From a bacterium (GTDB taxonomy: Bacteria > UBP7 > UBA6624 > JBBIMK01), in NCBI GenBank assembly GCA_037444445.1, contig JBBIMK010000008.1, positions 30,001 to 62,000 on the forward strand: a stretch of DNA of 32,000 nt. The letters run 5' to 3'. Made by a program: the position numbers and the translations under genes. The notes below the pieces were generated by a model, which saw only the letters and a program-made list of their open reading frames with translations, had not been told where the DNA came from and searched no databases. Of the stretch, positions 9,321 through 25,568 are shown piece by piece. Each line of letters starts with the position of its first letter. Position 1 is the first letter of the stretch.

Positions 9321-9329
9321 CGGGAAGAA

Positions 9330-9540: not shown

Positions 9541-9549
9541 CGGGAGACA

Positions 9550-11558: not shown

Positions 11559-11566
11559 AAGATAGG

Positions 11567-11944
11567 ATGAGCGCACAAAGAAAGGTTGCACTATTTTTCA
11601 TCCTTAGCGTTGGGATGTCGTGGATAGGGGTAATGAATTGTTCCTCTACCAGGCTCGAATCTCACCATTCGGGAATGCCCATACCTGCCTCTTCAGTGCC
11701 CTGCCCGAAGTGCAGCCCAACCCAATTGCCTGTTCTTCACATTCTTACCTGCGTTCATCCCAATGCTTCCGTTTTCTTCCCCACTTTTGAGTCAACGAGA
11801 GCTTTCCAGCCTGCACTGCTCTCTACGCTGAGTGATTTCGTCCATTCCCCGGCAGTATGGCATTCACCGAGTCCAGCAGGTTTTCATCTAAAACCGCCGA
11901 ATCAAGTTCCACTTTATCTGTTAAACCTCTCTATTTTATCCTGA
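11567..11944 (+). CDS. Hypothetical small exported Cys/His/Pro-rich protein (125 aa)
   Basis: ORF with a signal-peptide-like N terminus (MSAQRKVALFFILSVGMSWIGVMNC), a CPKC motif and several His. It occupies the position of small periplasmic accessory ORFs seen upstream of some czc/cus operons. No family was recognised, and its coding status is uncertain. Confidence 0.3.
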   Translation: MSAQRKVALFFILSVGMSWIGVMNCSSTRLESHHSGMPIPASSVPCPKCSPTQLPVLHILTCVHPNASVFFPTFESTRAFQPALLSTLSDFVHSPAVWHSPSPAGFHLKPPNQVPLYLLNLSILS

Positions 11945-11951
11945 TTCACTA

Positions 11952-12017
11952 CCCTGATTTCCCCGCATAATTAATCAGGGGACCCTTACAGCCTTCTCCT
12001 AAAAATACCCTGTAAGG
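11952..12017 (+). other. Two adjacent 8-bp stem-loops in the leader of cusC
   Basis: Hairpin 1 pairs CCCTGATT (11952-11959) with AATCAGGG (11973-11980). Hairpin 2 pairs CCTTACAG (11984-11991) with CTGTAAGG (12010-12017). The 3' arm of hairpin 2 overlaps a strong SD, AAGGAGG (12014-12020). Confidence 0.3.
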
Positions 12018-12101
12018 AGGTGGTGAATTCTGGAACGAAGGCTCTCACACTTTCTACTTTATTCTTATAGAAAATATACAGCAAGGCTATCGGACTGGCT
12101 G

Positions 12102-13430
12102 ATGGAAAATGCGGGCAATGGATACAGGTTTGCCCGATATAAAAAAGACTGGATACCCATCCTTCTTCTTCTCTTCTGGAGTGGAATCGGATGGGCGGAG
12201 AATCCTGCCATTACACCCATAGAAGCGTTTGTCCGGGAGGCGCCGGAGAAGAACCCGGAAATTCAGGCACTCACTTATCAGTGGGAAGCGATGAAGGCAC
12301 GGATTTCTCCCGCGAAAACCCTGCCTGACCCTACCATTGGCATCCGTCTGATGAATATGGGAAACCGCTTGAGCCTCGGGAAGGATATGAACTCTATGGT
12401 GGGAATCTCTTTCTCACAGATGGTGCCGTATGCGGGCAAACTCCCCCTGATGGGCAAGATTATGGAAGAAGAAGCCAACCAAATGTTTTATATGCTCCAG
12501 GAGAAAAGGTGGATGCTCACCGCGGAAGTTAAAAAAACCTACTACTCTATCTACCACACCGACCGGATGCTGGAAATTCTTCAGGAGAATAAAACCATCC
12601 TGGAGAATATGGAGAAGTCAATGGAAGCGATGTATCAAGTTGGGGAAGCGCTCCAGCAGGATGTCCTGAAGGCCCAGGTGTCGATTTCTAAGCTTCTGGA
12701 GCAGATGCTGGACCTCCGGAGGCAGAGAAAGGAGTTAGAGGCACGGATGAACCGTCTTCTGGGAAGAAGCGTCACGGCGCCCATCGGAAATCTCCAGGTG
12801 TCTGAGGAGATTTCCCTGCCTTACACGCTGGAGGACTTCAGAGAACTGGCGCTGAAATATTCGCCCACCCTGAGAGTGGAGGAAAAGGGAATCTCCAGGG
12901 CGGAGTATCAAGTGAAACTTGCGGAAAGGGAGTTCAAGCCGGACGCCATGTTCACATACTCTCGTTTCGCTCGTGGAAACTTTGGTCCCGCCTGGGAAGC
13001 CATGATGGAAATCACCGTGCCGTTATACAAGGAGAAAAAGCAGGCTTTTCAACTGATAGAAGCCCGGCAAAAGAAAGAGCAGGCAGAGCAGGCGCTTCAA
13101 GGGAAGAAAAACGAAATTCTCCAGGGGCTGGATGAAATGTTCGCCGCTCTTCAAACCAATGAGGAAATCTATCATCTCCTCGTGGATGGAATCATCCCAC
13201 AGGCGGAACTCACTTTTCGGGCATCTATGTCCGCTTATCAAGTGGGAAAGGTGGATTTCCTCACCACCCTGGATAGTCTGATGACTCTTTACGATATGAA
13301 GATGCGCCTTCACATGACCCTGGAGATGTTTCATAAAGACCTGTCGGATGTGGAGGCAATGATTGGAAAATCCTTAGAGATTCATTCTGGAGGTGAAACT
13401 CATGGAATCAAAACGACTCAAGAAAACTAA
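12102..13430 (+). CDS. cusC: TolC-family outer membrane efflux factor (CusC/CzcC-like)
   Basis: 442 aa with signal peptide KKDWIPILLLLFWSGIGWA and the heavy-metal OMF N-terminal pattern (EKNPEIQALTYQWEAMKARISPAKTLPDPTIG). It shows the two-repeat coiled-coil OMF architecture and lies directly upstream of the MFP and RND genes. The frame stays open upstream to 12027, so an alternative ATT/CTG start behind a strong SD is possible (see findings). Confidence 0.85.
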   Translation: MENAGNGYRFARYKKDWIPILLLLFWSGIGWAENPAITPIEAFVREAPEKNPEIQALTYQWEAMKARISPAKTLPDPTIGIRLMNMGNRLSLGKDMNSMVGISFSQMVPYAGKLPLMGKIMEEEANQMFYMLQEKRWMLTAEVKKTYYSIYHTDRMLEILQENKTILENMEKSMEAMYQVGEALQQDVLKAQVSISKLLEQMLDLRRQRKELEARMNRLLGRSVTAPIGNLQVSEEISLPYTLEDFRELALKYSPTLRVEEKGISRAEYQVKLAEREFKPDAMFTYSRFARGNFGPAWEAMMEITVPLYKEKKQAFQLIEARQKKEQAEQALQGKKNEILQGLDEMFAALQTNEEIYHLLVDGIIPQAELTFRASMSAYQVGKVDFLTTLDSLMTLYDMKMRLHMTLEMFHKDLSDVEAMIGKSLEIHSGGETHGIKTTQEN

Positions 13431-14826
13431 CTGGTTTATCGGGGCGGGGTTGATACTCACCCTTGTGGGGGGATACACTGCCCATCAGCAAGGCTGGCTG
13501 ACCCTGCCTTTCTTTTCCCCAGCTATTACCGCACAACCTATGGAAGGGATGAGCGGAATGGAGATGGGGAAATCAAAAGAGGAGCATGCGGGAATGGCCG
13601 GGATGGAAGGTATGGAGGAAATGGAGGAAGAGGTAGCGCCCAAACGCATTATGATTGACCCGGAAATGCAGCAGATTATCGGCGTCAGAATCCAGAAGGC
13701 CGGATATATGCCCCTCGTGAAAGAAATTCGGACGGTGGGACGAGTGGAATATGACGAAACCCGACTGAAAGCGGTTACAGTTCGGGTGATGGGCTACATT
13801 ACCAAACTTCTTGTGGATTACACAGGGAAAGAGGTAGAAGAAGGCGAACCACTTTTTACCTTTTATTCTCCTGAGCTTGTTTCTGCGCAGCAGGAATATC
13901 TTCTGGCGTTAAAAGGGGCGAACACTCTTTCCGGTTCCTCCTATTCGGAAATCAGCCAGGGGAGCAAAACCCTGCTGGAATCTGCAAGAAAGCGTCTTCT
14001 CCTCTGGAACTTCACTGAGGAACAAATTCAATCTCTGGAAAATCGTGGAGAGCCAGAGATTGAGTCCTATGTCTATTCCCCGGTTTCTGGGACCGTGGTA
14101 GAAAAGATGGCTCTACAAGGCAAGCAGGTGATGCCCGGGGAAGATTTATACAAAATTGCAGACCTCTCTCAAGTCTGGGTTATTGCCGACCTGTATGAGG
14201 AGGATGCTCCCCTATTGCGAGTTGGCCAGCATGCTTCCATTCAACTCACCTATTACCCTGGCAAAGCCTTCCACGGCTCTGTGGATTACATCTATCCCTA
14301 TTTAGACGAGAAAACGAGAACGATCCGGGTCCGCTTCGCCTTTCGAAACCAGCGAGAAAATGCCCGTGGCGTGAGGGAGGAAACCCGGCACCTGGAACAC
14401 GAAGGAATGGAAGGGATGGAAATGCCTGGAATGCCCGGCATGAATCACACACAGCACCAGGCTCCAAATTCAACCTCTGAAAATTCTTCCGGATGGCTTC
14501 TGAAACCCGGCATGTTCACCAATGTGACAGTGAATGTGAATCTCGGGCAGTATCTTGCGATTCCGGAGGACTCTGTCATAGACACGGGCTTACGTCAGGT
14601 CGTTTTCGTGGACCTGGGGAATGGACATTTCGAGCCCCGGAATGTGGTTCTCGGGCATCGGGTGAACGGCTACTACGCCGTTCTCTCAGGCTTGAAGCCA
14701 GGAGAGCCTATTGTGACCAGCGCCAACTTCCTGCTGGATGCAGAGAGCAAAATCCGCACTGCGATGCCTGCGATGCCGGGAATGGATATGAAAGGGATGA
14801 AGATGCCCGGACATGCAGGACATTAG
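13402..14826 (+). CDS. cusB: Efflux RND periplasmic adaptor (CusB-like), with three Met-rich segments
   Basis: The ORF track starts at GTG 13393. ATG 13402 is preferred because GGAGGTG lies 6 nt upstream. The HlyD/MFP core is present (VRVMGYITKLLVDYTGKEVEEGEPLFTFYSPELVSAQQEYL). Met-rich tracts are MEGMSGMEMGKSKEEHAGMAGMEGMEEMEEE (N terminus), HLEHEGMEGMEMPGMPGMNHTQHQ (internal) and MPAMPGMDMKGMKMPGHAGH (C terminus). Confidence 0.9.
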   Translation: MESKRLKKTNWFIGAGLILTLVGGYTAHQQGWLTLPFFSPAITAQPMEGMSGMEMGKSKEEHAGMAGMEGMEEMEEEVAPKRIMIDPEMQQIIGVRIQKAGYMPLVKEIRTVGRVEYDETRLKAVTVRVMGYITKLLVDYTGKEVEEGEPLFTFYSPELVSAQQEYLLALKGANTLSGSSYSEISQGSKTLLESARKRLLLWNFTEEQIQSLENRGEPEIESYVYSPVSGTVVEKMALQGKQVMPGEDLYKIADLSQVWVIADLYEEDAPLLRVGQHASIQLTYYPGKAFHGSVDYIYPYLDEKTRTIRVRFAFRNQRENARGVREETRHLEHEGMEGMEMPGMPGMNHTQHQAPNSTSENSSGWLLKPGMFTNVTVNVNLGQYLAIPEDSVIDTGLRQVVFVDLGNGHFEPRNVVLGHRVNGYYAVLSGLKPGEPIVTSANFLLDAESKIRTAMPAMPGMDMKGMKMPGHAGH

Positions 14827-14841
14827 AGGTGAAGGCTGGCT

Positions 14842-17800
14842 ATGATTGAACGACTAATAGACTGGTCTGCACGGAATAAATTCCTCGTTCTTCTCGCCAC
14901 CTTCTTTGCCATTCTCGGAGGTATCTGGGCGATTAAGAACACTCCGCTGGATGCCATCCCCGACCTCTCCGATGTTCAGGTCATCATCTACACCGAATGG
15001 ATGGGAAGAAATCCCAGAATCATAGAGGACCAGATTACCTATCCCATTTCCACCACTATGCTCTCTGCGCCGAAAGTGAAGGCGGTTCGGGGCATTTCTG
15101 CCTTCGGCTTCTCCTTCATCTATGTCATCTTTCAGGATGGAACGGACATCTACTGGGCGAGGACTCGTGTTCTGGAATATCTGGAAAAAATCAAAGGGCG
15201 TCTCCCGCCCGGCATCACGCCAATCCTCTCCCCGGATGCCACGGGAGTGGGCTGGGTTTATATTTATGCCCTCGCAGATAAAACCGGTCAGAACGACCTG
15301 GCACAACTTCGGACCATCCAGGACTGGTATCTGAAGTACTATCTGGAAAGCCTGCCTGATGTGGCAGAGGTGGGCACCTTTGGAGGTTTTGTTCGGGAAT
15401 ATCAGGTGGAAGTTGACCCGAATAAACTTCTTGCCTTCGGCATCCCGTTGAAGATGGTGATGGATGGCATCCGAATGAGCAATCTGGAGGTGGGAGGTGG
15501 AGCCATTGAACTCGCCCAGACGGAATATATGGTGCGAGGGATAGGATATGTGCAAAAAGTGGAGGACCTGAAAAATATCCCTCTGGGCACCAATATGATG
15601 GGCACGCCGATTTATCTCAAGGATGTGGCGAGAGTGACCCTGGGACCCGATATGAGGAGAGGAGCGGCGGACCTGAATGGAGAGGGCGATGTGGTGGGAG
15701 GCATCGTTGTGATGCGGTATGGAAAAAACGCCCTGCAGGTCATTAACCGGGTGAAGGTGGCGATAGAAGAGTTTCAGAAAACCCGACTCCCCCCCGGTGT
15801 TGAAATCATCCCCGTCTACGACCGTTCCAAACTCATTCTACAATCCATTGCTACCCTTCGCCGAACCCTGATTGAAGAGTCCATCATCGTGATTCTCGTG
15901 TGTCTCATCTTTCTCTTCAGCCTGAGAAGTTCCGGCGTGGTCATCGTCACTCTACCCATTGCCGTGATTCTTTCCTTCATCCCGATGATGTATCTACGGC
16001 TGACCTCCAACATTATGTCGCTGGGCGGGATTGCCATCGCCATCGGAGCCATGGTTGATGCGGCTATCGTGATGATTGAAAATGTCCACAAGCGGCTGGA
16101 GCATTTTGCACTGGAACATCCTGACTGGGCTCTGACATCAGAGGGTAGAGCCCAGCGAAGTCAAATCCTGATTCACGCCATGCAGGAAGTGGGAAAACCC
16201 CTCTTCTATTCCCTTCTGGTTATCACGGTCTCCTTCCTCCCGGTATTCACCTTAGAATATCAGGAGGGGAGGCTTTTCAAGCCATTAGCCTTCACGAAAA
16301 CCTTCTCCATGTTTTTTGCCTCCTTTCTTTCCATCACCCTGGTGCCTGCCATCATGGGACTATTTATTGAGAAGAAGGTCATCCCGGAGAAGAGAAATCC
16401 CATCAGCCGATTTCTTATCAGTCTGTATAATCCTGTTGCCCGTTTTGCACTGCGCTGGCGGTTCATCACCATCACCCTCGGTCTTATGGCAACTTTTCTC
16501 GCTTACCCTGCCTATAAAAAACTGGGGAGTGAATTTATGCCACCTCTCTATGAGGGTACCCTTCTATATATGCCAATGACCACACCGGGGATTTCTATCT
16601 ACGAATCCCGGCGGGTTCTGCAAATACAGGATAAACTCCTGAAGCAATTCCCTGAGGTTGACCAGGTGCTGGGGAAAGTGGGGAGAGCCACCACACCCAC
16701 GGACCCTGCTCCCCTGCCCATGGTAGAAACCGTAGTCTCTCTCAAACCTGAACACGAATGGAGGAAAGGGCTGACCTGGGAAAAACTCTTTGACGAGATG
16801 GATAAAGAAATTCAAATCCCCGGATTCGTGAATGTGATGACCATGCCCATCAAAAATCGGGTGGATATGATCACCACGGGGATACGAACACCCGTAGGAG
16901 TGAAGGTCTTCGGGCCGAAACTGGAGGAGGTTCAGGAGATAGCGGAAGAAATTGAACGCATCATTCCACAGGTGGAAGGCACGAGAAGCGCCATTGCCGA
17001 GCGCTCTTTAGGCGGGTTTTACTTGAACATCACCCCCAGGCGGGAAGCTCTGGCTCGCTACGAACTTTCCATTATGGATGTCCAGGATGTGATAGAAATG
17101 GCAATCGGTGGAACTGTCATCTCCACCACGATTGAGGGCCGAGAACGCTACCCCATCAATATCCGGTATCCGAGGGAACTTCGGCTCTCTCCAGCCCTCC
17201 TGAAAAGGGTATTGATTCAAACGCCTATGGGCTACTCCATCCCGATTTCGCAGGTGGCGGATATAGAACTCACTCAGGGTCCGGATATGATACGAAGTGA
17301 GCGGGGACAACTCACTGGCACAGTTTATGTTGATGTGGCTGGCCGGGACATTGGCTCCTATGTGGCGGAAGCCAAAAAACTGGTGGAAGAAAAAATCAAA
17401 CTCCCTCAGGGTTATTCCATCCTCTGGAGCGGGCAATACGAGTATATGCAGAGAGTTACAGAAAAGTTAAAATATATGATTCCCCTTACCCTTTTCATCA
17501 TCTTCCTGCTGATGTATCTCAACTTCGGCTCCGTGGGGAAGACTCTCGTAGTGATGCTTTCCATTCCCTTCGCTCTCACCGGGAGTATGCTGGGAATATA
17601 TTTGATGAATTATAATCTCAGCGTGGCGGTGTGGGTGGGAATCATTGCTCTCGCCGGCGTTGCCGCTGAAACCGGCGTGGTGATGCTGGTGTATATTGAT
17701 GAAGCCTATGAACGATACAAAAAACAGGGGATGATGCGCACCCGCCAGGACCTCTCTGATGCCATCATTGAGGGAGCAGTGCAAAGGGTTCGCCCCAAGA

Positions 17801-18009
17801 TGATGACCGTAATGGCTGTCATGATGGGGCTGATTCCCATCCTGTGGAGCCACGGAGCAGGTGCGGATGTGATGCGGAGAATCGCCATGCCGATGATTGG
17901 CGGTATGGTCACTTCTACCATTCTCACTCTCTTCATCATTCCTTCCATCTTTCACATCTGGAAATCTTTTGAACTCCCTAAACAGAAGCAAACTGGAGGT
18001 GAATCCTGA
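14842..18009 (+). CDS. cusA: Heavy-metal efflux RND transporter, CusA type (Cu(I)/Ag(I))
   Basis: 1055 aa with HME-RND architecture. Positions equivalent to the E. coli CusA methionine triad are conserved: LLYMPM, PLPMVET and NRVDMITTG. The stop overlaps the next start (TGATG at 18007-18011). Confidence 0.93.
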   Translation: MIERLIDWSARNKFLVLLATFFAILGGIWAIKNTPLDAIPDLSDVQVIIYTEWMGRNPRIIEDQITYPISTTMLSAPKVKAVRGISAFGFSFIYVIFQDGTDIYWARTRVLEYLEKIKGRLPPGITPILSPDATGVGWVYIYALADKTGQNDLAQLRTIQDWYLKYYLESLPDVAEVGTFGGFVREYQVEVDPNKLLAFGIPLKMVMDGIRMSNLEVGGGAIELAQTEYMVRGIGYVQKVEDLKNIPLGTNMMGTPIYLKDVARVTLGPDMRRGAADLNGEGDVVGGIVVMRYGKNALQVINRVKVAIEEFQKTRLPPGVEIIPVYDRSKLILQSIATLRRTLIEESIIVILVCLIFLFSLRSSGVVIVTLPIAVILSFIPMMYLRLTSNIMSLGGIAIAIGAMVDAAIVMIENVHKRLEHFALEHPDWALTSEGRAQRSQILIHAMQEVGKPLFYSLLVITVSFLPVFTLEYQEGRLFKPLAFTKTFSMFFASFLSITLVPAIMGLFIEKKVIPEKRNPISRFLISLYNPVARFALRWRFITITLGLMATFLAYPAYKKLGSEFMPPLYEGTLLYMPMTTPGISIYESRRVLQIQDKLLKQFPEVDQVLGKVGRATTPTDPAPLPMVETVVSLKPEHEWRKGLTWEKLFDEMDKEIQIPGFVNVMTMPIKNRVDMITTGIRTPVGVKVFGPKLEEVQEIAEEIERIIPQVEGTRSAIAERSLGGFYLNITPRREALARYELSIMDVQDVIEMAIGGTVISTTIEGRERYPINIRYPRELRLSPALLKRVLIQTPMGYSIPISQVADIELTQGPDMIRSERGQLTGTVYVDVAGRDIGSYVAEAKKLVEEKIKLPQGYSILWSGQYEYMQRVTEKLKYMIPLTLFIIFLLMYLNFGSVGKTLVVMLSIPFALTGSMLGIYLMNYNLSVAVWVGIIALAGVAAETGVVMLVYIDEAYERYKKQGMMRTRQDLSDAIIEGAVQRVRPKMMTVMAVMMGLIPILWSHGAGADVMRRIAMPMIGGMVTSTILTLFIIPSIFHIWKSFELPKQKQTGGES

Positions 18010-18014
18010 TGAAA
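17953..18014 (+). repeat. Direct repeat copy A (3' end of cusA through the first codons of the next gene)
   Basis: Sequence is CACATCTGGAAAT[22 nt]GCAAACTGGAGGTGAATCCTGATGAAA. It matches copy B at 24205-24241, apart from a 22-nt and a 3-nt indel and two mismatches. Confidence 0.75.
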
Positions 18015-18242
18015 TTTTTTGACCCTGTTTGCAACGTTTTCCTGGACACGCTGGACGAAGAGTTGCAGGCCCCTCACGGCAACCACATTCACTACTTCTG
18101 CTCTCCCACCTGCCGGAAAATCTATGAGGAAGCACTGGAATACGAGGAGACCATCCGAAATCCACTGGAGTTCCATGCCGGTGGCAGGGAAAAGGAGCCA
18201 TACCTTTTCATCAAGAGGGTAGATACAGGGTATGAGGCGTAG
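18009..18242 (+). CDS. YHS-domain mini-protein (77 aa)
   Basis: MKFFDPVCNVFL...HIHYFCSPTCRKIYEE matches the YHS/TRASH pattern DPVC-x(n)-Y(Y/F)FCS-x2-C. The start is translationally coupled to the cusA stop. Confidence 0.8.
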   Translation: MKFFDPVCNVFLDTLDEELQAPHGNHIHYFCSPTCRKIYEEALEYEETIRNPLEFHAGGREKEPYLFIKRVDTGYEA

Positions 18243-18275
18243 AAGAAAAAACTGAACACCTGGAGGTGAGAAAAT

Positions 18276-18764
18276 ATGAAACTTGTATGGGCGGTCATTC
18301 GGGAAAATAGACTACGAGAAGTTCAAAAAGCCCTGCAAAAAGAAGGCTTTACCGGGGCAACCGTAGTCCATGTTTCCGGTATGGGGGAAGAAGATTCTCA
18401 TCCTCCCCTCACCCTTTTTCCCCACATCAAAATGGAAATCATCACTTCGGATAACCTGGCAGAAAAAGCAGTGGAAACGATTATGAATGCTGCCTGGACG
18501 GGCTTGCCAGGAGACGGAGGGATTGCCATCTTACCGGTGGAGAAGGTCTGGAAAATCCGACATAAGGAACGACTCATCACTCTTTTGGAAAAAGTGATTG
18601 ACCCGGTTTGCAAAATGAAGATAGAGAAAATGAAAGCAGCGGGTAAGACAGAGTTTGCAGGAACCAGTTACTACTTCTGTTCTGAAATATGCCTGTTAAA
18701 ATTCCAGGAGTCTCCGGAAAAATTTCTCCGGGCAAGCAAGAGCTCTAAAGTAAAGGAGGAATAA
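18276..18764 (+). CDS. PII-like (GlnB-fold) domain fused to a C-terminal YHS domain
   Basis: The N-terminal ~105 aa align by eye to PII proteins: MKLVWAVIRENRLREVQKALQKEGFTGATVVHVSGMG...IKMEIITSDNLAEKAVETIMNAAWTGLPGDGGIAILPVEKVWKIRHKE. The B-loop TGxxGDG is kept and the T-loop is about 8 aa shorter. The C terminus DPVCKMKIEKMKAAGKTEFAGTSYYFCSEICLLKFQESPEKF is a YHS domain. GGAGGTGAG lies upstream. Confidence 0.8.
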   Translation: MKLVWAVIRENRLREVQKALQKEGFTGATVVHVSGMGEEDSHPPLTLFPHIKMEIITSDNLAEKAVETIMNAAWTGLPGDGGIAILPVEKVWKIRHKERLITLLEKVIDPVCKMKIEKMKAAGKTEFAGTSYYFCSEICLLKFQESPEKFLRASKSSKVKEE

Positions 18765-18766
18765 AT

Positions 18767-19060
18767 ATGAAATTGAATCCGGCAGGATTCGCAAGCGCTC
18801 TGGGGATAACCTCAGCCATCCTTTACTTTGTGTGCGGCATCCTTGCCGCGGTCACTCCTCAGTTTCTCCTCTACATTTTCAAGACCTGGTTCCACGGGAT
18901 GAATCTGGATGCACTCGTCCCTGCTGACGGACACATTTTCAATCTGACTCTGTTCATCATCGGGCTTATCACCTTCACGGCTACCGGCTGGGGCAGTGGG
19001 TGGTTGGTGGCAATTATTTACAATTTGTGGCAAAAGAAAAGCCCGGAGAAAGGAGAGTGA
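18767..19060 (+). CDS. Small membrane protein (97 aa, 2-3 TM), function unknown
   Basis: AAAGGAGGA lies 6 nt upstream of the ATG, and the start is 2 nt after the previous stop. Hydrophobic segments are LGITSAILYFVCGILAAV and LTLFIIGLITFTATGWGSGWLVAIIY. Confidence 0.65.
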   Translation: MKLNPAGFASALGITSAILYFVCGILAAVTPQFLLYIFKTWFHGMNLDALVPADGHIFNLTLFIIGLITFTATGWGSGWLVAIIYNLWQKKSPEKGE

Positions 19061-19065
19061 TAGAG

Positions 19066-19275
19066 ATGGTAATGGAAATTGACCCCGTGTGCGGTATGAG
19101 GGTGGATACACGGATTCCTGCTGCTAAATCTGAGCATGAAGGGATTACTTATTTCTTCTGCTCCGTTGGGTGCAAGGGCATCTTTGACCAGGACCCCGAC
19201 AAATACAGCCGACTATACTGGAAGAAAAGAGGGATGGATAAACCTGAATCTCCGGAGGTGGAGACTGATGGTTGA
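19066..19275 (+). CDS. YHS-domain mini-protein (69 aa)
   Basis: The ORF track starts at 19000, but ATG 19066 has AAAGGAGAG 8 nt upstream and follows the previous stop by 5 nt. MVMEIDPVCGMRVDTRIPAAKSEHEGITYFFCSVGCKGIFDQDPDKY is a canonical YHS domain. Confidence 0.8.
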   Translation: MVMEIDPVCGMRVDTRIPAAKSEHEGITYFFCSVGCKGIFDQDPDKYSRLYWKKRGMDKPESPEVETDG

Positions 19276-19483
19276 GAAGGACCCGGTATGCGGGATGCCG
19301 GTAGATACAAAACGGGCAGGCAGTAGCCTTTCCTTTCAGTATAACGGAAGGACCTACTACTTTTGCTCTCACTATTGCCGGGAGCATTTTGAAGCGGACC
19401 CGGAACGATATTACCGGGGAAGGCAGACAGAGATGATGGGCCCACATAAAGAATTCAGGGAAAAAGGAGGTGAAAATGAATGA
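19268..19483 (+). CDS. YHS-domain mini-protein (71 aa)
   Basis: The ORF track starts at 19136. ATG 19268 has GGAGGTGGAG upstream and overlaps the previous gene by 8 nt (ATGGTTGA). The sequence is MVEKDPVCGMPVDTKRAGSSLSFQYNGRTYYFCSHYCREHFEADPERY. Confidence 0.8.
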   Translation: MVEKDPVCGMPVDTKRAGSSLSFQYNGRTYYFCSHYCREHFEADPERYYRGRQTEMMGPHKEFREKGGENE

Positions 19484-19977
19484 AGGGCCGAAATTCTCTT
19501 CACTGGATTCTGGCACTGGCGTTTACAGGGCTTTTTCTCGGTGTGGCAGACGATTCTTCCTCTACGCCTCATGATGAGGGGATGATGGGCGGGATGATGC
19601 CTATGATGCAGATGTGCCACCAGATGATGTCCCGACAGATGTCGGGAATGGGCGGCGGTATGCATCATCCTATGATGGACATGATGGGGCATGAACCGCA
19701 ACCCATGACCCCCGAGGAGCGGGAAATCGCTAAAATGATGGCGGATGCAGAGGTGAAAGAAGCCCAGCTGCACCGAATGCTTCTGGAAGAGAATGTGAAT
19801 CCGGATGCCCTGAAGGGAAAGATACGAGAGATTCATGACCTTCAGGTGGAAATCCAGTTCAGGGAAATCATGACCGCTCGTGCAAAAGCATCGGCTCAGA
19901 AACCTTCCGAAAAGGGAGAAAGCAAGAGTGAGCACGAGATGCATCACATGGGCGGCATGGGCAGGATGGGGAAATAA
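19480..19977 (+). CDS. Exported Met/His-rich protein with a Spy/CpxP/ZraP-like helical core (periplasmic metal binding or chaperone)
   Basis: Signal peptide MKGRNSLHWILALAFTGLFLGVA. The Met/His tract is HDEGMMGGMMPMMQMCHQMMSRQMSGMGGGMHHPMMDMMGHEPQPM. The helical segment TPEEREIAKMMADAEVKEAQLHRMLLEENVNPDALKGKIREIHDLQVEIQFREIM resembles periplasmic heavy-metal-sensor/Spy-family repeats. The C-terminal tail is HEMHHMGGMGRMGK. The ATGA overlaps the previous stop, and GGAGGTG lies 8 nt upstream. Confidence 0.75.
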   Translation: MKGRNSLHWILALAFTGLFLGVADDSSSTPHDEGMMGGMMPMMQMCHQMMSRQMSGMGGGMHHPMMDMMGHEPQPMTPEEREIAKMMADAEVKEAQLHRMLLEENVNPDALKGKIREIHDLQVEIQFREIMTARAKASAQKPSEKGESKSEHEMHHMGGMGRMGK

Positions 19978-20021
19978 CGGAGGGTGAAGAGGAGGAATTG
20001 CCCCCTTCCATCAGGAATCGC

Positions 20022-20052
20022 GGGGGGTCCTCTACCTGCTCCGGGACCCCCC
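20022..20052 (+). other. GC-rich stem-loop inside the operon (no U tract)
   Basis: GGGGGGTCC (20022-20030) pairs perfectly with GGACCCCCC (20044-20052) around a 13-nt loop. It lies in the only sizeable gap (96 nt) of the module and is followed by CGATTCC rather than a T run. Confidence 0.5.
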
Positions 20053-20073
20053 CCGATTCCACTTTAAGGAGGA

Positions 20074-20766
20074 ATGCATATGCCTACATGCGCTGTGTGC
20101 TTGATGAAAGTCTCACGCGAGGTTAAATTTCGCACAGAAATTAAGAAGCGAACCTACTATTTTTGCAGTTCCCGCTGTCTGATGCAATTTCAGAAAACTC
20201 CGGAAAAATATTCTCCTGTGCATATACGAACACCGGCATTTGTGGGAATTCCTTCCCGGGTTCATCTCAGCCAATCCGCCTTTACAGCATTGATTTTATC
20301 CGTGGCGGAGATATTCAAAAAAGAAGCCATGGGCTACCTTCTGGGAAATTGCAAGGGCGAAGTGGTGGAGATAGACCATGCGATACCCTTTCAAACGGGT
20401 AAAAGAGGTTATACTTACAGTGCAGTTTCTCTCCGGCGGCTGGAGTGGGTTAGAGACCTGACAGAGCGCATCCATCCAGGATTGCAGTGGATTGGAGATT
20501 ATCATTCTCACCCTCAGCATGGAAATGTCCTGCGTCTTCACCTTCCCAGCATTCTGGATGTGGAAGATATGGAACCCGGGTATGTTTATTTAGTCATTTC
20601 AGTGAACGAAGTACAAGTTTGCTTACCCTGGCGCACGAGCAGGAAGAGGGGAACTCTCGCTGGAACTCTGGGAAAATTGCGGATGGAGATTGCGGGCTAC
20701 TGTCTTGATAAAGAGCAAAATTTGCGCCGTTTAGAGGTGGATGCCCCCTGGTTGAAAAGAAAATAA
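20074..20766 (+). CDS. TRASH/YHS-type zinc-ribbon domain fused to a JAB/MPN (JAMM) metallopeptidase domain
   Basis: The N terminus CAVC-x21-CSSRC (MPTCAVCLMKVSREVKFRTEIKKRTYYFCSSRCLMQFQKTPEKY) is the full TRASH C-x2-C-x19-22-C-x3-C pattern. The C-terminal half has JAMM elements: KKEAMGYLLG (Glu) and GDYHSHPQHGNVLRLHLPSILD. That is HxH...S-x2-D with 12 residues where 7 are usual. The likely true start is ATG 20080, 7 nt after AAGGAGG. Confidence 0.75.
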   Translation: MHMPTCAVCLMKVSREVKFRTEIKKRTYYFCSSRCLMQFQKTPEKYSPVHIRTPAFVGIPSRVHLSQSAFTALILSVAEIFKKEAMGYLLGNCKGEVVEIDHAIPFQTGKRGYTYSAVSLRRLEWVRDLTERIHPGLQWIGDYHSHPQHGNVLRLHLPSILDVEDMEPGYVYLVISVNEVQVCLPWRTSRKRGTLAGTLGKLRMEIAGYCLDKEQNLRRLEVDAPWLKRK

Positions 20767-22880
20767 AAAAAGCCCTATTTCTTTATGCTTTTTTCACGGT
20801 AGTCCAGCCAGCACTTCTATGGGCGCACGGGGCAGGGCATCTCTCCACAGAAGAAATGGCTTCGGGACTGGTGGTCGTTGGGCGCTATCAGTTTCTGCTG
20901 GAAAAAGAAGCCACGCCACTCACCCGGGGAAAGACATCATACATTACCGTTCGCATCTTTGATACTTATGCGAAGGCTCTGCTGAAGGGGAAGCGAGTGC
21001 TTATGGCTATCAAACTTCCTCAAGCAGCGATTCCCCCCGGCCAAATCCCGGTACCCACGCTTATACCACCTTCTTCTCAGCACTCTTCTACAGGAATAGC
21101 AGTGGACAGTCCTGTTTCCTGGACCCCAGAGGGCAACCCGGATGTATCCGACCTACTGCCCACAGAAGAAACTGCGGAGGGAGGGCATTATCGGATAAAA
21201 TTCACTCCTGAAACTTCCGGGGTTCATCTATTGAAACTGGCACTGTTTGTGGACGATGCATCCTCACCTCTTCTAATAGAATTCCCTCTCCAGGTAAAAA
21301 ACCCGGCGTTCACGCTCACACGAATCGTATTTTTTACGCTTCTCCTGCTATTCCTCACCGTTATTTCTCTGAGCGTTTTCTCTCTCCGCAGAAGATATGG
21401 CTCCTCCGATTCACAGTCTTTGAATCTACTGGAAATTCCATGGTTAAACCGGTTTATTCGCTGGAGATATTTTCAAACAGTTTTTCAAGTTCCCCTGCTG
21501 TTTTTGTTGATTCTCATCATCTTTGCAGGTTTATATGATGCACCTGATGGGAGCAAAAATTTCGCCACGATTCTCACCTGGACAGTGTGGTGGGCGGGGA
21601 TTATCTTTACCTTCGTTCTACTGGGAAGAGTCTGGTGTTTTATGTGTCCTGTGGGAGGGCTGGCGGATTGGACGGGGAAATGGGCTCAGCCCCGTCGCCT
21701 TCTACCCAAACTCCTTCGTTCTTTGTGGATTCCCACCGTTCTATTCCTTTTTCTTACCTGGCTGGATGGAGCGGTGGGCATCGTAAACAATCCGCGCTTG
21801 ACCGCCTGGGTCCTGATGTCTATTGCCGGGCTTGCAATTCTCATTTCTCTGCTGTTTGCCCGTAGGACTTTTTGCCGGTATATCTGCCCGATTGGAGGAA
21901 TGATTGGGTTATATTCTATGTTTTCCCCGGTAGAGTTGAGGGTGAAATCTCATGAAATCTGTCGTTCACACAACCCGAAAACCTGCTATCTGGGTTCTCC
22001 AGATGGGGAAGGATGCCCGATGTTTGAATATCCAGCGGTGATGAATCGCAACAATTACTGTAACTTTTGCGGGGAGTGCGTCAAAACCTGCTCGCCGAAC
22101 AATCTTGTCTTGAGATTTCGCCCGTTCGGGACAGACCTTTTTACTCTGGTAAATCCCCGTCTGGATGAGGCATTTTTTGCCCTTACATTAACAGGAGTAA
22201 GCCTGGTGGCGGTAGGGCATATGATTGCTCCCTGGCATTCCTGGATGCTGGGGCTTTCCAGGCTCATCGGATTGGGAAGGCTGGGTATTACCAGCGAGAA
22301 AACCTTAACTGTCATCGGTTTCACCATCACCCTGTTCAGTATATCTGTGGTGATTTTGCCTGCTCTGGTTTACGGTGCAGTGCTCTGGCTTCAAAAGTTT
22401 TCTGTGGGGCAACCCATTCTGGCCGACCGAGGGAACGACGGCAGGGCAGAAAAAGTGGCTCCACATCAAATTTTCAGCCGTTTTGCTTACGCCTTCATTC
22501 CTGTGGGATTATCCATGCATCTGGCTCACAATATCCAGCATTTATTAACTGAAGGAGCCGTTATCATCCCCGCCACACAAAAATTCCTGAACAACTATAC
22601 TTTCTTTAATCTCGGCATTTCCAACTGGCAGGCTTATTCTTTCCCTCATTCCCCCTATATCACCTGGCTTCAAATCACACTCGTCCTCATATTTTTGCCC
22701 TTTTCTCTGCGAATACTTGATAGGGTGTGGCATCAGTATTTTTCTCCATCAGCCCGATTTCAGTGGGCAATGGCTCCCTTACTCCTTTTGGTTCTCGTTC
22801 TGGTGTGGCTGAATCTCTTCCTTATCCAGCAAGATATGTCTGCCCGGCACACAACCCTGTTGACAGCCATCGCCCGATGA
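20748..22880 (+). CDS. Polytopic membrane Fe-S protein of the NapH/MauN/CcoG(FixG) type with an exported N-terminal beta-sandwich-like domain
   Basis: ORF track gives 20856-22880. Motifs are GRVWCFMCPVGG, RRTFCRYICPIGG (the CxxxCP type of NapH/CcoG) and the ferredoxin-like CNFCGECVKTCSPNN. There are about 10 or more TM segments. The frame is open upstream to 20712 and encodes a signal peptide (VEKKIKKALFLYAFFTVVQPALLWA/HGAGH) with no ATG/GTG/TTG. CTG 20748 sits 7 nt after GAGGTGG, so the start given here is provisional. Confidence 0.7.
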   Translation: MVEKKIKKALFLYAFFTVVQPALLWAHGAGHLSTEEMASGLVVVGRYQFLLEKEATPLTRGKTSYITVRIFDTYAKALLKGKRVLMAIKLPQAAIPPGQIPVPTLIPPSSQHSSTGIAVDSPVSWTPEGNPDVSDLLPTEETAEGGHYRIKFTPETSGVHLLKLALFVDDASSPLLIEFPLQVKNPAFTLTRIVFFTLLLLFLTVISLSVFSLRRRYGSSDSQSLNLLEIPWLNRFIRWRYFQTVFQVPLLFLLILIIFAGLYDAPDGSKNFATILTWTVWWAGIIFTFVLLGRVWCFMCPVGGLADWTGKWAQPRRLLPKLLRSLWIPTVLFLFLTWLDGAVGIVNNPRLTAWVLMSIAGLAILISLLFARRTFCRYICPIGGMIGLYSMFSPVELRVKSHEICRSHNPKTCYLGSPDGEGCPMFEYPAVMNRNNYCNFCGECVKTCSPNNLVLRFRPFGTDLFTLVNPRLDEAFFALTLTGVSLVAVGHMIAPWHSWMLGLSRLIGLGRLGITSEKTLTVIGFTITLFSISVVILPALVYGAVLWLQKFSVGQPILADRGNDGRAEKVAPHQIFSRFAYAFIPVGLSMHLAHNIQHLLTEGAVIIPATQKFLNNYTFFNLGISNWQAYSFPHSPYITWLQITLVLIFLPFSLRILDRVWHQYFSPSARFQWAMAPLLLLVLVLVWLNLFLIQQDMSARHTTLLTAIAR

Positions 22881-22935
22881 ATAAACTGGAAATGAATGCT
22901 TCAAAGGAAATACAGCAATGGAGAGGTGAGGTGAG

Positions 22936-23244
22936 ATGTGTAGATTCATCTGGACGGTAATTTTAGTGGTAACTCTGAGTTCAGCAGGGTTAGCCCATAC
23001 AGGAGAGAAACACGAGAAGTTGCAGGAGTCACCCCCATCTGCGGAAGTTACAACGCCAGAGAAAGAAATGAACCAGGGAGTGGAACACGAGATGATGGAA
23101 GGAGCATCAGAAACCCGGCCTGCTCCTCAGGTGCCTTTGAATCCGGCGAGAGATGTGGTTTTGCTTGTCATATTCACCGCTGGTGGAATCTGGCTGGCGA
23201 TTCGCAACTACCAGCATTTCTCTAAGGGGGCTGCTTCCCGATGA
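22936..23244 (+). CDS. Small exported, C-terminally membrane-anchored His/Glu/Met-rich protein (102 aa)
   Basis: Signal peptide MCRFIWTVILVVTLSSAGLA, with a predicted mature N terminus HTGEKHEK. It also has VEHEMMEG and the C-terminal TM VVLLVIFTAGGIWLAI. GGAGAGGTGAGGTGAG lies upstream. Its stop overlaps the cytochrome b start (ATGA). Confidence 0.6.
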   Translation: MCRFIWTVILVVTLSSAGLAHTGEKHEKLQESPPSAEVTTPEKEMNQGVEHEMMEGASETRPAPQVPLNPARDVVLLVIFTAGGIWLAIRNYQHFSKGAASR

Positions 23245-24236
23245 CCACCTGGCGAGAAAGATTCGGTCTTCACGCGCTGGCGTACCCGGTTCCATCACAC
23301 AGTCACCGATTAGACTATGCCCTCGGAGCTATCGCTCTCTCGGGCTTTCTGATTCTCATTCTCACGGGCATCTGGCTGGGGCTTTTATATCAGGTCGGTG
23401 CCACCAGTGCCTATGAAAGTGTGGAGGCTCTTCAGGGTCTGGACCGGTGGGTGCGAAACCTACATTACTGGTCCGCCCACTTCACCTATCTTACGGTGCT
23501 TCTTCATGTGGTTCGGGTAGGGATTACAGGGGCCTATCGCACTCCGAGAGAAGGAATCTGGTGGTTGGGAGTTTTTCTCCTCGCTACCGTCTCTGCTATA
23601 TTCCTCACCGGAACCATCATCAAGTGGGACCAGGAAGGATATGAAGCCTACGCCCATCTGGAAGAAGGCTTCGCATACGCCGGACCTCTTGCCAATTTCT
23701 TGAAAAGCAGATTTACTGGTTCTGTCGCATTTTCCTCTCTCTTCTTCACCCATACTTCCCTTCTCCCGATTTTAGTTCTTCTTCTGATTGCAGGACATTT
23801 ACTTCTGATAAAAATCCACGGGATTTCTGAATTACCTGGCGAGACCTCTTCCACTGCACGCATTCCTTTTACGCAGGTTATGAAAACCATTTCCCTTTAT
23901 ACAGGTGGATTTTTTATTCTGCTGGTGATACTTGCCACTTTCCTCCCAGCCCCATTGGGGCCTAACTTCGTAGAAGGGTTTGAGGTTACTAAACCTCCGT
24001 GGCCCTTCCTCTGGATTTATGCCCTGGAGAACTGGCTTGGAATGATGGGTATGGTATGGGGACCTGCCCTGCTCTTCCTCGGATTATTGGCTATGCCACT
24101 GCTGGACCGGGGGAAAAATCGGCGAGCATGGATTACCCTATTCCTCCTTGTCCTTCTACTTCTGATTGCCCTTGGTTTATATGCTGCCCTCTCTGTTCCC
24201 GTTCCTCATCTGGAAATGCAAACAGGTGAATCCTGA
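23241..24236 (+). CDS. Cytochrome b (fused b6-like N-domain plus subunit-IV-like C-domain), no adjacent Rieske or cytochrome c partner
   Basis: The helix-B His pair is in NLHYWSAHFTYLTVLLH (13 intervening residues). The helix-D His pair is in FFTHTSLLPILVLLLIAGH (14 intervening residues, the b6-type spacing). The C-terminal part has PPWPFLWIYALENW at the position of the PEWY Qo motif. Confidence 0.8.
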   Translation: MTTWRERFGLHALAYPVPSHSHRLDYALGAIALSGFLILILTGIWLGLLYQVGATSAYESVEALQGLDRWVRNLHYWSAHFTYLTVLLHVVRVGITGAYRTPREGIWWLGVFLLATVSAIFLTGTIIKWDQEGYEAYAHLEEGFAYAGPLANFLKSRFTGSVAFSSLFFTHTSLLPILVLLLIAGHLLLIKIHGISELPGETSSTARIPFTQVMKTISLYTGGFFILLVILATFLPAPLGPNFVEGFEVTKPPWPFLWIYALENWLGMMGMVWGPALLFLGLLAMPLLDRGKNRRAWITLFLLVLLLLIALGLYAALSVPVPHLEMQTGES

Positions 24237-24241
24237 TGAAA
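24205..24241 (+). repeat. Direct repeat copy B (3' end of the cytochrome b gene)
   Basis: Sequence is CTCATCTGGAAAT-GCAAACAGG-TGAATCCTGATGAAA. See copy A at 17953-18014. It gives cytochrome b the same C-terminal QTGES* tail as CusA (QTGGES*) and the same TGATGAAA stop/start junction. Confidence 0.75.
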
Positions 24242-24295
24242 GAAAACGAACCTAATGTGGAAGAAAACGAAAATCTTCAGAGGAGGTAGAGTGAA

Positions 24296-24754
24296 ATGTC
24301 ACAGAAGAAAGGCTCAACCAGGGAAGCAGAGAAAGCCAGGTCTTTATCGCGAGTGATAGGGGTGACTGGTTTTCTCGCCCTGGGGCTTGGACTCTTTTTC
24401 ACTGTCCGCCTATTTCTTACGGGGAAACCGGTGGAGATAAAAACCAATGGAGAAGCTCCACCTTACAGGCGAGTGGAGACACGCCCTGTTCTTCCCTCTT
24501 CTCTTTTCACTGGTGCTGTGGCAGAAGCCTATCAGGCTGCCCACGATATGCCCGATTTCATTGACCAGTTTTACTGCTACTGCCAGTGCAAGGAATATCA
24601 CGGGCACAAAACTCTTCTTACCTGTTTTACTGATAAGCACGCCGCTAATTGCGACATTTGTTTATATCAAGCCCTCACTGCTGTCCAGATGAGCAAAGAA
24701 GGAAAGTCTGCGGATGCCATTCGCCATTTCTTCTCCTCCCGTTTCGCCCAGTAA
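24296..24754 (+). CDS. PCYCGC-motif family membrane-anchored protein
   Basis: N-terminal TM VIGVTGFLALGLGLFFTVRLFL. The Cys cluster is FYCYCQCKEYHGHKTLLTCFTDKHAANCDICLYQAL, matching the CYCxC...GH...CF...C-x2-C pattern of the PCYCGC family. AGGAGGT lies 8 nt upstream. Confidence 0.7.
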   Translation: MSQKKGSTREAEKARSLSRVIGVTGFLALGLGLFFTVRLFLTGKPVEIKTNGEAPPYRRVETRPVLPSSLFTGAVAEAYQAAHDMPDFIDQFYCYCQCKEYHGHKTLLTCFTDKHAANCDICLYQALTAVQMSKEGKSADAIRHFFSSRFAQ

Positions 24755-24844
24755 ACCCGGTCCCTGACCCTGGCTCATAGTAATGGTTTCTAAGAAGATG
24801 GACAGCCACCCCTCTGGCTTCTAACTTGTTCAACAGGAAATATC

Positions 24845-24871
24845 ACAGGATGAGTTGATGCGAAATCCTGT
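24845..24871 (+). terminator. Weak candidate terminator after the metal island
   Basis: ACAGGAT (24845-24851) pairs with ATCCTGT (24865-24871) around a 13-nt loop, followed by TTAT. The stem is short and AT-containing. Confidence 0.2.
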
Positions 24872-25013
24872 TTATGCCGTGACTTTTTAATGTGCTCTCA
24901 ATTACTATTTTTAGTTTTCTGATTAGAGAAAGACTCCGCTGAGAAAATTTTATGGATGGGTGTTCTCTGACTTCGGCACCGCTGTTCCGGCGCAAGCCTT
25001 ACCACCCTCACTT

Positions 25014-25568
25014 TCACCGGAATAAAACGGGGAGTTCAATGTAAGTGCCGGGAGGGATTCCAAAGGACCAAATTTGAGTGTTGGGAGCACCCGTAAAATA
25101 CTGGCGAATCAAACAAATAGGCACAGCATGGGTGACGACGCAGATGGTGCCTTCCGGATTTTGTCGGAGGATACGCCATAGAGAAGACAGGACTCTTTTA
25201 CGGATATGGCGGAAAGGTTCACCGTGTGGAGGTGAAAGGTGTTCCGGGTTTTCCCGCCAGCGTGCGAGCCAGTGAGAATAACGGCGTTGGACTTCTTCCT
25301 GGGTCAGCCCTTCCAGTTTGCCCTGATAAATTTCCCTTAACCCCGGAGCCAGGCGAATCGCCAGATGAAGCCTCTGTGAAATGTATTCTGCTGTTTCAAC
25401 CGCTCTTTTAAGCGGGCTGGAATACAGACAGCGTATGGATTTTTTAGTGAGTTCCTCTGCCATCAGATAGGCTTGTTGCCTTCCTTGTTCGGTGAGAGGG
25501 ATGTCCGTTTGCCCCTGGAATCTCCTCTCACGGTTGTATTGGGTTTCTCCGTGCCGAACGAGGAGCAG
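25014..25568 (-). CDS. Histidine phosphatase superfamily (phosphoglycerate-mutase-like); candidate glucosyl-3-phosphoglycerate phosphatase
   Basis: The ORF track starts at internal Met 25463. The same frame is open upstream to 25613 and encodes the catalytic N terminus KLLLVRHGETQYNRERRFQGQTDIPLTEQG (RHG motif). That stretch contains no ATG/GTG/TTG. The start given here is CTG 25568 and is provisional. Confidence 0.7.
   Translation of the reverse strand: MLLVRHGETQYNRERRFQGQTDIPLTEQGRQQAYLMAEELTKKSIRCLYSSPLKRAVETAEYISQRLHLAIRLAPGLREIYQGKLEGLTQEEVQRRYSHWLARWRENPEHLSPPHGEPFRHIRKRVLSSLWRILRQNPEGTICVVTHAVPICLIRQYFTGAPNTQIWSFGIPPGTYIELPVLFR

Follow-up and report, generated by a model that had tools for sequence, protein, structure and literature searches.

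A TRASH/YHS domain fused to a predicted JAMM peptidase of the x12 family in a cus operon of an uncultured bacterium

In a 32,000-nucleotide stretch of DNA from an uncultured bacterium of the lineage UBP7; UBA6624; JBBIMK01 (GenBank assembly GCA_037444445.1, contig JBBIMK010000008.1, positions 30,001 to 62,000; hereafter 'the window', in whose own numbering positions are given), a gene within a Cus-type operon for copper/silver efflux encodes a four-cysteine TRASH/YHS domain followed by a JAB/MPN+ domain of the JAMM metallopeptidase type. The locus raises the question of what such a peptidase would do among metal-resistance genes, and whether the small cysteine-rich domain in front of it ties its activity to metals. 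We propose that this YHS-JAB protein is a JAMM peptidase coupled to a metal or to a metal chaperone, a tentative reading that falls somewhat short of being probable, and we weigh it below against several others.

The fused gene and its ortholog

The gene lies on the forward strand at 20080..20766 and specifies 228 amino acids plus a stop codon. An alternative ATG at 20074 would extend the product to 230 amino acids (230-codon open reading frame, ORF, 20074..20766). Because a Shine-Dalgarno sequence, AAGGAGG, read directly from the sequence at 20066..20072 (+), abuts the first ATG but sits 7 nucleotides 5′ of the second, the ATG at 20080 is the likelier start. A public copy of the protein (P0001) that is 100% identical to that of the window has the 228-residue form, whose numbering we use throughout. 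The N-terminus has neither a signal peptide nor a transmembrane segment, and the product is a cytoplasmic, two-domain protein.

Residues 3-46 (20086..20217, +) make up the TRASH/YHS domain, which is modelled as a beta-hairpin plus helices. The Pfam model YHS (PF04945) matches residues 8-46 with 32.5 bits against a cutoff of 30.3 (E = 8.5e-8), and two other TRASH models, PF24273 and PF08394, remain below their cutoffs. The cysteines are laid out as C4-x2-C7-x21-C29-x3-C33 (CAVC-x21-CSSRC; codons at 20089-20091, 20098-20100, 20164-20166 and 20176-20178, +). TRASH domains are reportedly defined, after Ettema et al. in 2003, by the pattern C-x2-C-x19-22-C-x3-C, which these cysteines fit. The first-pass annotation of this DNA, made by a model from the letters alone, had recorded the full four-cysteine pattern and had singled out this protein as the only one of five YHS/TRASH copies in the window with the first CxxC. 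Both observations hold: the remaining YHS-type copies, four in number, show DPVC(G/K/N)M and FCSxxC but no CxxC as the first knuckle, and all four cysteines are kept in the ortholog described below. The two domains are connected by a linker of residues 47-59 (20218..20256, +), where the model is least certain (predicted local distance difference test score, pLDDT, of 67 for the block of residues 41-50) and 46% of the amino acids are identical to the ortholog.

The combination of domains is exceedingly rare. When 1.84 billion representative proteins were searched exhaustively with HMMER, 618 matched at E <= 1e-3, and among these YHS and JAB occur together in one 50%-identity cluster only, which is represented by the ortholog P0002 and includes the window protein. 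All remaining matches are JAB-only or YHS-only, in agreement with the Pfam architectures precomputed for 96 members of the family. Queried with the full-length protein, a k-mer-indexed search gave the window protein itself, one ortholog and nothing else. Profile scans with an alignment of these two sequences yielded no further member of the fusion in genome contigs; a scan of metagenome contigs yielded no fusion, its sole return being an ordinary YHS-CopA ATPase (L010), and blastn of positions 18000-24800 against a plasmid database gave no match. The author of the first-pass annotation had not seen the fusion described, and our full-text literature search for YHS or TRASH combined with JAB or JAMM found no paper on the pair either. 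The fusion, known from two species-level lineages of uncultured bacteria, and its cus/Fer4_5 setting thus appear to be undescribed, while both domains are individually known.

The fusion is real and not an artefact of assembly or gene calling. The window version of the fused ORF occurs uninterrupted in NCBI, JGI and Logan data (as a species-level cluster), and the ortholog (P0002, at locus L001), which is 65% identical, is found in two further assemblies. The annotated gene of P0002 is too short: an upstream in-frame ATG with its own ribosome-binding site gives a protein beginning MRKCPVCLMKV, which restores the first CxxC and with it the complete set of four TRASH cysteines. The ortholog also lies amid the same neighbours as the window gene, so that the architecture is not the one-off that the first-pass annotation had allowed for. 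Between the two orthologs, the proportion of nonsynonymous differences (pN) is 0.30 and that of synonymous differences (pS) 0.82 in the YHS part, and the corresponding values for the JAB part are 0.19 and 0.73; synonymous sites are therefore saturated (pS 0.73-0.82). With pN far below pS in both parts, both fused domains are under purifying selection.

The JAB domain and the x12 family

The C-terminal JAB/MPN+ domain (residues 60-228; 20257..20763, +) is identified by Pfam, by Foldseek and by more than 90 family matches across the region. The Prok-JAB model (PF14464) covers residues 67-180 with 33.5 bits against a cutoff of 25 (E = 4.3e-8), and the JAB model PF01398 scores 21.2 bits, just below its cutoff of 22.5. 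An AlphaFold2 model, for which an alignment of 82 relatives was used, has a mean pLDDT of 90.2 and a predicted template modelling score of 0.80; pLDDT is 72-82 in the N-terminal hairpin and helices and 87-98 in the C-terminal 170 residues. In a Foldseek comparison of this model with the PDB (197 matches at E <= 1e-3), the top match is the Rpn11 homolog of Caldiarchaeum subterraneum (6fnn/6fno; E = 1e-8, target-normalised template modelling score 0.77-0.80), and further matches include Rpn11, CSN5, BRCC36, Cap3 of the cyclic-oligonucleotide-based anti-phage signalling system (CBASS) and a bacterial complex with a deubiquitinase for ubiquitin-like proteins (Ubl), 8tyx. Profile searches of PDB sequences agree, with weak but consistent matches. 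As modelled, the domain thus has the MPN fold; its absence would, according to the first-pass annotation, have refuted the call.

The catalytic elements that the same annotation had pointed out, a JAMM glutamate in KKEAMGYLLG and an HSH...S..D motif, are both present within this domain. The predicted catalytic glutamate, E82 in KKEAMG (20323..20325, +), is invariant in 45 and in 82 family sequences and aligns with the E-x-x-G motif region of Rpn11 and BRCC36. The zinc motif, H142-S-H144-x12-S157-x2-D160 (20503..20559, +; HSHPQHGNVLRLHLPSILD), has residues that are conserved among the 82 relatives, and the 12-residue loop between the HxH and the serine (20512-20547) is ordered in the model, with a pLDDT of about 94-95. 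Residues E82, G85, G89, G139, H142, S143, H144, D160 and G195 are invariant in the 82 relatives, and E77, Q105 and S157 nearly so (S157 in 80 of the 82). Because the glutamate, both histidines and the aspartate are invariant and the serine almost invariant, a pseudo-peptidase, which had been offered as an alternative in the first-pass annotation, is unlikely, and an active JAMM peptidase is much more likely than a pseudo-enzyme. We therefore describe the protein as a cytoplasmic, predicted catalytically competent JAMM/MPN+ zinc peptidase.

The canonical JAMM zinc motif is H-x-H-x7-S-x2-D, and the spacing of the window protein had initially been described as expanded. The 12 residues are indeed there, but they are not a special feature: among 93 matches to the JAB half with a recognisable motif, 64 have x12 and 16 the canonical x7. 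The family consensus reads GD[FY]HSH[PT]Q[YFW]G-x2-[KR][GA]-x3-[PL]S-x2-D, and relative to 2kcq, a bacterial MPN protein of solved structure, an insertion of 5 residues falls exactly between HSHP.. and ..PS. Family alignment, a check suggested at the outset, thus indicates that the x12 spacing is the norm and the hallmark of a JAB subfamily. Similarly, the two additional histidines noted within the insert exist in the window protein but are not conserved. The H147 column holds Y, F or W across the family and arginine in the 65%-identical ortholog, and the H154 column holds P, A or V. Since these columns vary, the extra loop histidines should not be taken as a second metal site, and this possibility was rejected.

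Nearly all matches that cover the JAB half are stand-alone proteins of 165-225 amino acids, in which the alignment begins within the first ~30 residues. Stand-alone proteins of about 175 amino acids annotated as 'Mov34/MPN/PAD-1 family protein' align end to end with the C-terminal 170 residues of the window protein at 25-41% identity, and share with it the succession E-x4-E-x2-G, P-x-Q-T, the zinc motif (including x12) and SGT-x-G. They differ in that they lack any N-terminal domain; YHS/TRASH is found only on the window protein and its ortholog. Their hosts are Thermodesulfobacteriota, Nitrospirota, Dadabacteria, WOR-3, Bathyarchaeota and Nanoarchaeia, as metagenome-assembled genomes (MAGs). 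The x12 subfamily comprises more than 100 clusters (at 50% identity) scoring below E = 1e-10 and appears to be uncharacterised, with only generic names in the sources. By comparison, Rpn11, CSN5, BRCC36 and the Caldiarchaeum Rpn11 homolog (PDB 6fnn, 6fno, 6fjv) have the MPN fold and the Glu/His-x-His/Ser/Asp set in common with the window protein, but their spacing is x7 rather than x12 and sequence identity is only 14-21%. Furthermore, enzymes of this type act on conjugates of ubiquitin or Ubl in larger complexes, whereas no Ubl system is visible at the window locus.

Gene contexts of the fusion and of its relatives

The closest relatives of the fused JAB domain (p-distance 0.60-0.63) fall with it into a 9-member group in a rough neighbour-joining tree that carries no support values (no bootstrap). 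Within the same subclade, the gene for P0194 (40% identity; locus L003) ends the order OsmC, CopA-type P1B ATPase (651 bits), Metal_resist-like, MerA (500.6 bits against a cutoff of 454), HMA, JAB, and it begins right after the stop codon of the HMA gene (pair at 5087-5825). A WOR-3 MAG (L011) encodes a JAB protein 80% identical to P0194, also in an HMA-JAB pair (6696-7501), and the two HMA proteins are 69% identical. The flanks of the second pair are wholly unlike those of the first and include convergent genes for a Fer4_5 polyferredoxin, a ferredoxin and a GGR-like flavoprotein. This polyferredoxin is 26% identical over 198 amino acids (E = 1e-10) to the Fer4_5 protein encoded directly downstream of the fusion in the window. 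For the 392-residue protein encoded 3′ of the JAB gene in L003, no homology to the window Fer4_5 protein was detected.

These WOR-3-type pairs (L003/L004, L011) thus resemble the fusion in that a JAB protein of its own subclade (~40% identity) is encoded directly 3′ of a small metal-domain gene. They differ in that the metal domain is a ferredoxin-like HMA (GMTCxxC), not TRASH, and belongs to a separate gene, and in that the Fer4_5 gene of L011 is convergent, not co-directional. The metal-binding domains of the two arrangements are not homologous: one is an HMA domain encoded by its own gene, the other a fused TRASH domain. The strongest indirect sign of a functional link is this recurring arrangement of a small metal-binding domain and a JAB domain, with MerA/CopA or Fer4_5 alongside, and it points to a JAB subclade that works with a metallochaperone-type module. 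Two other relatives, P0005 and P0009, are encoded directly after genes for HdrC-like (4Fe-4S) and HdrB-like (CCG) proteins (L030, 1034-3170; L031, 843-2848), a context that suggests a link of the JAB subclade to iron-sulfur (Fe-S) or disulfide-reductase proteins. The gene for P0003 follows a DUF302 gene, and that for P0004 overlaps the end of a gene for an MsbA-like ABC exporter. In Nitrospirota relatives (L005, L012), a stand-alone Usp gene is located directly 5′ of the JAB gene, with a 4-nucleotide overlap in L012.

In the window, the gene immediately 3′ of the fusion encodes a membrane polyferredoxin (Pfam Fer4_5; 20748..22880, +). Its first canonical start codon (ATG, GTG or TTG) occurs only at 20856, and a signal peptide (KKIKKALFLYAFFTVVQPALLWA/HGAGH) is encoded in frame 5′ of this position, including a segment, AHGAGHLS.EEMASG, that is conserved with the L001 ortholog. 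Because this conserved segment precedes the first canonical start, translation likely begins at a non-canonical codon, CTG at 20748 or ATA at 20763, which would overlap the stop codon of the JAB gene; otherwise, a sequencing error in an A-rich run would have to be assumed. In L001, the ATG of the Fer4_5 gene overlaps the end of the JAB gene by 25 nucleotides, and the two genes are likely to be translationally coupled in both genomes. NapH, NosR and CcoG, an Fe-S cupric reductase, are all Fer4_5 proteins (PMC7558416). For the window protein, the match is to the generic Fer4_5 model, and its scores to NapH-type models stay far under their cutoffs; because only the generic model matches, we do not name it CcoG. 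The polyferredoxin has widespread homologues (505 matches).

One of these homologues, P0322 (999 amino acids), is fused to cation-efflux (CDF, PF01545) and ZT_dimer domains, and is another physical link of the polyferredoxin family to metal transport. At the homologue locus L036, on the Nitrospinota MAG contig JBHIBA010000005.1, the Fer4_5 gene is part of a large metal-stress cluster together with genes for a sensor kinase, a sigma-54 regulator, Metal_resist, a Rieske protein and DUF5676; the cluster also includes HtrA, FtsH, a rhodanese and a YHS-HMA-CopA ATPase, its proteases being of non-JAB families. A further component of the downstream redox module is a PCYCGC/CYCXC family protein (24296..24754, +), which matches Pfam PCYCGC and NCBIfam OS_HP4_CYCXC (106 bits, cutoff 90) and is also found in L001 and L035; in L035, its gene adjoins that for Fer4_5.

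All of these window genes belong to one same-strand array, which is headed by a perfect sigma-70-like promoter (11531-11558; TTGACA, 16 nucleotides, TG-TATAAT). It runs through a 125-residue ORF, CusC-like OEP, CusB, CusA, a YHS-like mini-protein, P-II-YHS, DUF5676 and two YHS proteins, and continues with a Met/His-rich protein, a hairpin, YHS-JAB, Fer4_5, a 102-residue protein, cytochrome b and PCYCGC/CYCXC. The 125-residue ORF (11567-11944), just 3′ of the promoter and first in the cus operon, has an N-terminus like that of a signal peptide or lipoprotein. The CusC-, CusB- and CusA-type genes for heavy-metal resistance-nodulation-division efflux (12102..18009, +) have matches to OEP, HlyD_D23/CusB and, for CusA/CzcA, TIGR00914 (1154 bits). 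After cusA comes a run of cytoplasmic YHS-type proteins (18009-19483), namely a degenerate YHS-like protein of 77 amino acids, the P-II-YHS fusion (18276-18764), the DUF5676 protein with two transmembrane segments (18767-19060) and two YHS mini-proteins, whose ORFs (19000-19275 and 19136-19483) probably start later than listed, at MVMEIDPVCGM and MVEKDPVCGM. The Met/His-rich protein (19480..19977, +) has a signal peptide and is 46% identical to its L001 ortholog, which in turn resembles Pfam Metal_resist weakly (E = 6e-4, below cutoff). L001 retains CusCBA, one YHS protein, the Met-rich protein, YHS-JAB, Fer4_5 and PCYCGC, and is without the extra YHS genes, P-II-YHS, DUF5676 and cytochrome b.

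Between the Met-rich gene and the ribosome-binding site of the YHS-JAB gene lies a GC-rich hairpin with a 17-base-pair stem (GGAATCGCGGGGGGTCC / GGACCCCCCCCGATTCC; 20014..20060, +) that no T-tract follows. It is the sole strong inverted repeat in positions 11000-25500, i.e., the 14.5-kb operon, and L001 has a hairpin resembling it, with identical GGAATC-N-GGGGGG arms, at the equivalent place (~9921-9960; z = -4.8). The hairpin of the window may be an element for processing, stability or attenuation that separates the efflux and redox halves of the operon. It is not a repeated element, as it is present in a single copy (both arms matched; one further match with one mismatch is explicable by chance), and it has no match to a known RNA in Rfam. 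Outside the array, a cluster of five tRNA genes (9089-9623, -) lies between the trigger factor/ClpP/ClpX genes and a gene for an ArsA-like ATPase, and a gene for a Usp-glycosyltransferase-2 fusion is convergent to the operon end both in the window (25585-27405, -) and in L001 (13321-15081, -).

Possible functions of the fused peptidase

How, then, might the fused protein work? We suggest that in the lineage with the fusion, a peptidase of the x12 family would have acquired the N-terminal four-cysteine TRASH/YHS module. This module would bind Cu(I) or Ag(I), or dock on another metal-loaded YHS protein, and would thereby gate or target the peptidase, whose cleavage of a partner protein or C-terminal adduct would be confined to stress by thiophilic metals. 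The likeliest partner would be a component of the downstream redox module (Fer4_5, PCYCGC) or a small YHS chaperone-like protein. Both the metal gating and the identity of the partner are our inference. The proposed gating has a parallel in CopR, an archaeal regulator in which TRASH, fused to a helix-turn-helix (HTH) domain, is a copper-sensing module (PMC7830388) and couples copper sensing to transcription. Like the window protein, archaeal CopR/CopT (HTH plus TRASH) and CopM-type TRASH-only chaperones have the C-x2-C-x19-22-C-x3-C module in a copper-resistance locus, and CopR/CopT share the logic of a sensing module plus an effector. The window protein differs from CopR/CopT in that its effector would be a peptidase instead of a DNA-binding domain, in that it is bacterial, and in that copper binding is predicted from its family and operon only.

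Two specific substrates that the window might offer can be set aside. CusA (...KQKQTGGES; 17971-18009) and cytochrome b (...EMQTGES; 24210-24236) have similar C-terminal tails, which the first-pass annotation had put forward as a substrate. However, the syntenic CusA of L001 ends in ...PAKEGRSE and the cytochrome b gene is missing there, and the shared QTG(G)ES tail is probably coincidental or species-specific. A C-terminal tail with GG on a small YHS protein was likewise rejected, since the YHS protein of the ortholog's locus ends in ...RKPEEEVK.

Several observations weigh against a metal-coupled peptidase. Its foremost rival is a housekeeping JAMM peptidase with a structural zinc ribbon, doing the same general job as its stand-alone kin, with its place in the cus operon a lineage-specific accident; the ribbon would then be an interaction module that holds zinc and does not sense copper. 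The four-cysteine domain could merely hold structural zinc, and it weakly resembles zf-FCS/MYM and eL24-type zinc ribbons. The wider JAB family is mostly encoded in housekeeping contexts apart from metal genes: TolB-JAB-LigT-rplU-rpmA in Dadabacteria and allies, Usp-JAB(-GGR) in Nitrospirota, a gene for a cyclic nucleotide-binding protein followed by JAB in WOR-3/Hydrothermales, and elsewhere the order Aldedh, 139-residue protein, JAB, beta-eliminating lyase. Neither of the two loci of Fer4_5 homologues examined (L035 and L036) has a JAB gene; the JAB protein is therefore a lineage-specific accessory of the Fer4_5 module, not part of its core. The grouping of the closest relatives comes from a tree without bootstrap values, and the fusion itself is limited to its single 50%-identity cluster. 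Finally, no gene for a ubiquitin-like, ThiS/MoaD-like or E1 protein is present in the window, in L001 or in the loci of ~30 relatives. On the other hand, the domain does pass the YHS cutoff amid four other YHS genes, the operon position and the Fer4_5 overlap have been kept at 65% identity with saturated synonymous sites, and the nearest stand-alone kin are paired with HMA genes in mercury and copper contexts. We consider the housekeeping enzyme unlikely, but it is a serious contender.

The absence of Ubl-related genes bears more directly on another possibility, that the protein deconjugates a distally encoded Ubl or sulfur carrier or processes its C-terminus, and is comparable to HvJAMM1, Mec+/CysO or QbsD, with TRASH tying the pathway to metal stress. 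Such a role would suit the structural neighbours of the model, which are Rpn11-type deubiquitinases, Cap3 and the Ubl-deubiquitinase complex 8tyx, and there is weak profile likeness to desampylase and Cap3-type JAB models. Yet the score to NCBIfam NF041370 (archaeal desampylase of the HvJAMM1 type) is 16.8 bits against a cutoff of 130, on which membership in this equivalog was rejected. The JAB (Cap3) models of PADLOC reach at most 29.5 bits and cover only residues ~59-149, ending at the HxH. In view of these weak, partial matches, and with no Cap2 or CD-NTase (cGAS/DncV-like nucleotidyltransferase) among the window genes scanned, a role in CBASS or other defence was rejected as well. CBASS Cap3 and bacterial JABs of the Mec+/QbsD type are, like the window protein, small JAMM enzymes, to which it is weakly similar in profile and structure, but their partners (Cap2/CD-NTase; the carriers CysO/QbsE) are absent from all neighbourhoods examined, and the alignments break at the x12 loop. 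No beta-grasp gene, no E2 or CD-NTase gene adjoining any family member examined and, in the window, L001 and the ~30 relatives' loci, no adjacent ThiS/MoaD/CysO-like Gly-Gly carrier was found, although a distal carrier is possible. A deconjugase thus seems improbable.

Mec+ frees cysteine from CysO-Cys, and a related idea is that the window protein is an amidase acting on a conjugate of a low-molecular-weight thiol or a metal-thiolate, in the service of thiol-based handling of copper, silver or mercury and not of proteolysis. Many genes beside members of the subclade encode proteins of thiol and disulfide chemistry (MerA, HdrC/HdrB-like CCG proteins, the Cys-rich PCYCGC and the thiolates of HMA and YHS). 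However, the argument is purely one of association, we saw neither a carrier protein nor a gene of thiol biosynthesis, and the genomes of anaerobes often have Fe-S and disulfide proteins by chance, so that we regard an amidase as quite improbable.

Even less can be said for a pseudo-peptidase, or pure metal-binding protein, whose His-rich loop and TRASH cysteines would serve to buffer copper or to traffic it, with no catalysis involved. The two extra loop histidines and an operon full of metal-binding mini-proteins might suggest such a role, but the catalytic residues are conserved family-wide, the extra histidines vary even in the ortholog (H147 is Arg there), and purifying selection is strong across the whole JAB domain; the idea is very improbable. 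That two genes were joined by an error of assembly, frameshift or gene calling, for which the rarity of the fusion is the only argument, can be dismissed given the uninterrupted ORF in three data sources, the ortholog in two further assemblies and one confident model that spans both domains.

To our knowledge, the bacterial systems described for copper, silver and mercury consist of efflux pumps, chaperones, reductases or oxidases and transcription factors, and none has a dedicated JAMM peptidase. A broader form of the metal-coupled reading would make the whole JAMM subclade an unrecognised part of resistance to thiophilic metals (Cu, Ag, Hg) by way of interchangeable modules of the metallochaperone type, TRASH in the fusion and HMA from a neighbouring gene in WOR-3; a metal-loaded module would trigger the proteolytic processing of a membrane Fe-S redox partner (Fer4_5) or of chaperones. 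We consider this extension doubtful; if true, it would amount to a one-component 'metal sensor plus protease' circuit, which has no described counterpart in bacterial metal homeostasis. The practical weight of the finding is limited by its two species-level uncultured lineages and by the associative nature of the evidence. Nonetheless, the fusion in a cus operon, together with HMA-paired kin near MerA/CopA, leads to the testable idea that regulated proteolysis or deconjugation is part of the metal defence of some uncultured lineages, and the fusion provides a first functional lead for the x12 JAB subfamily.

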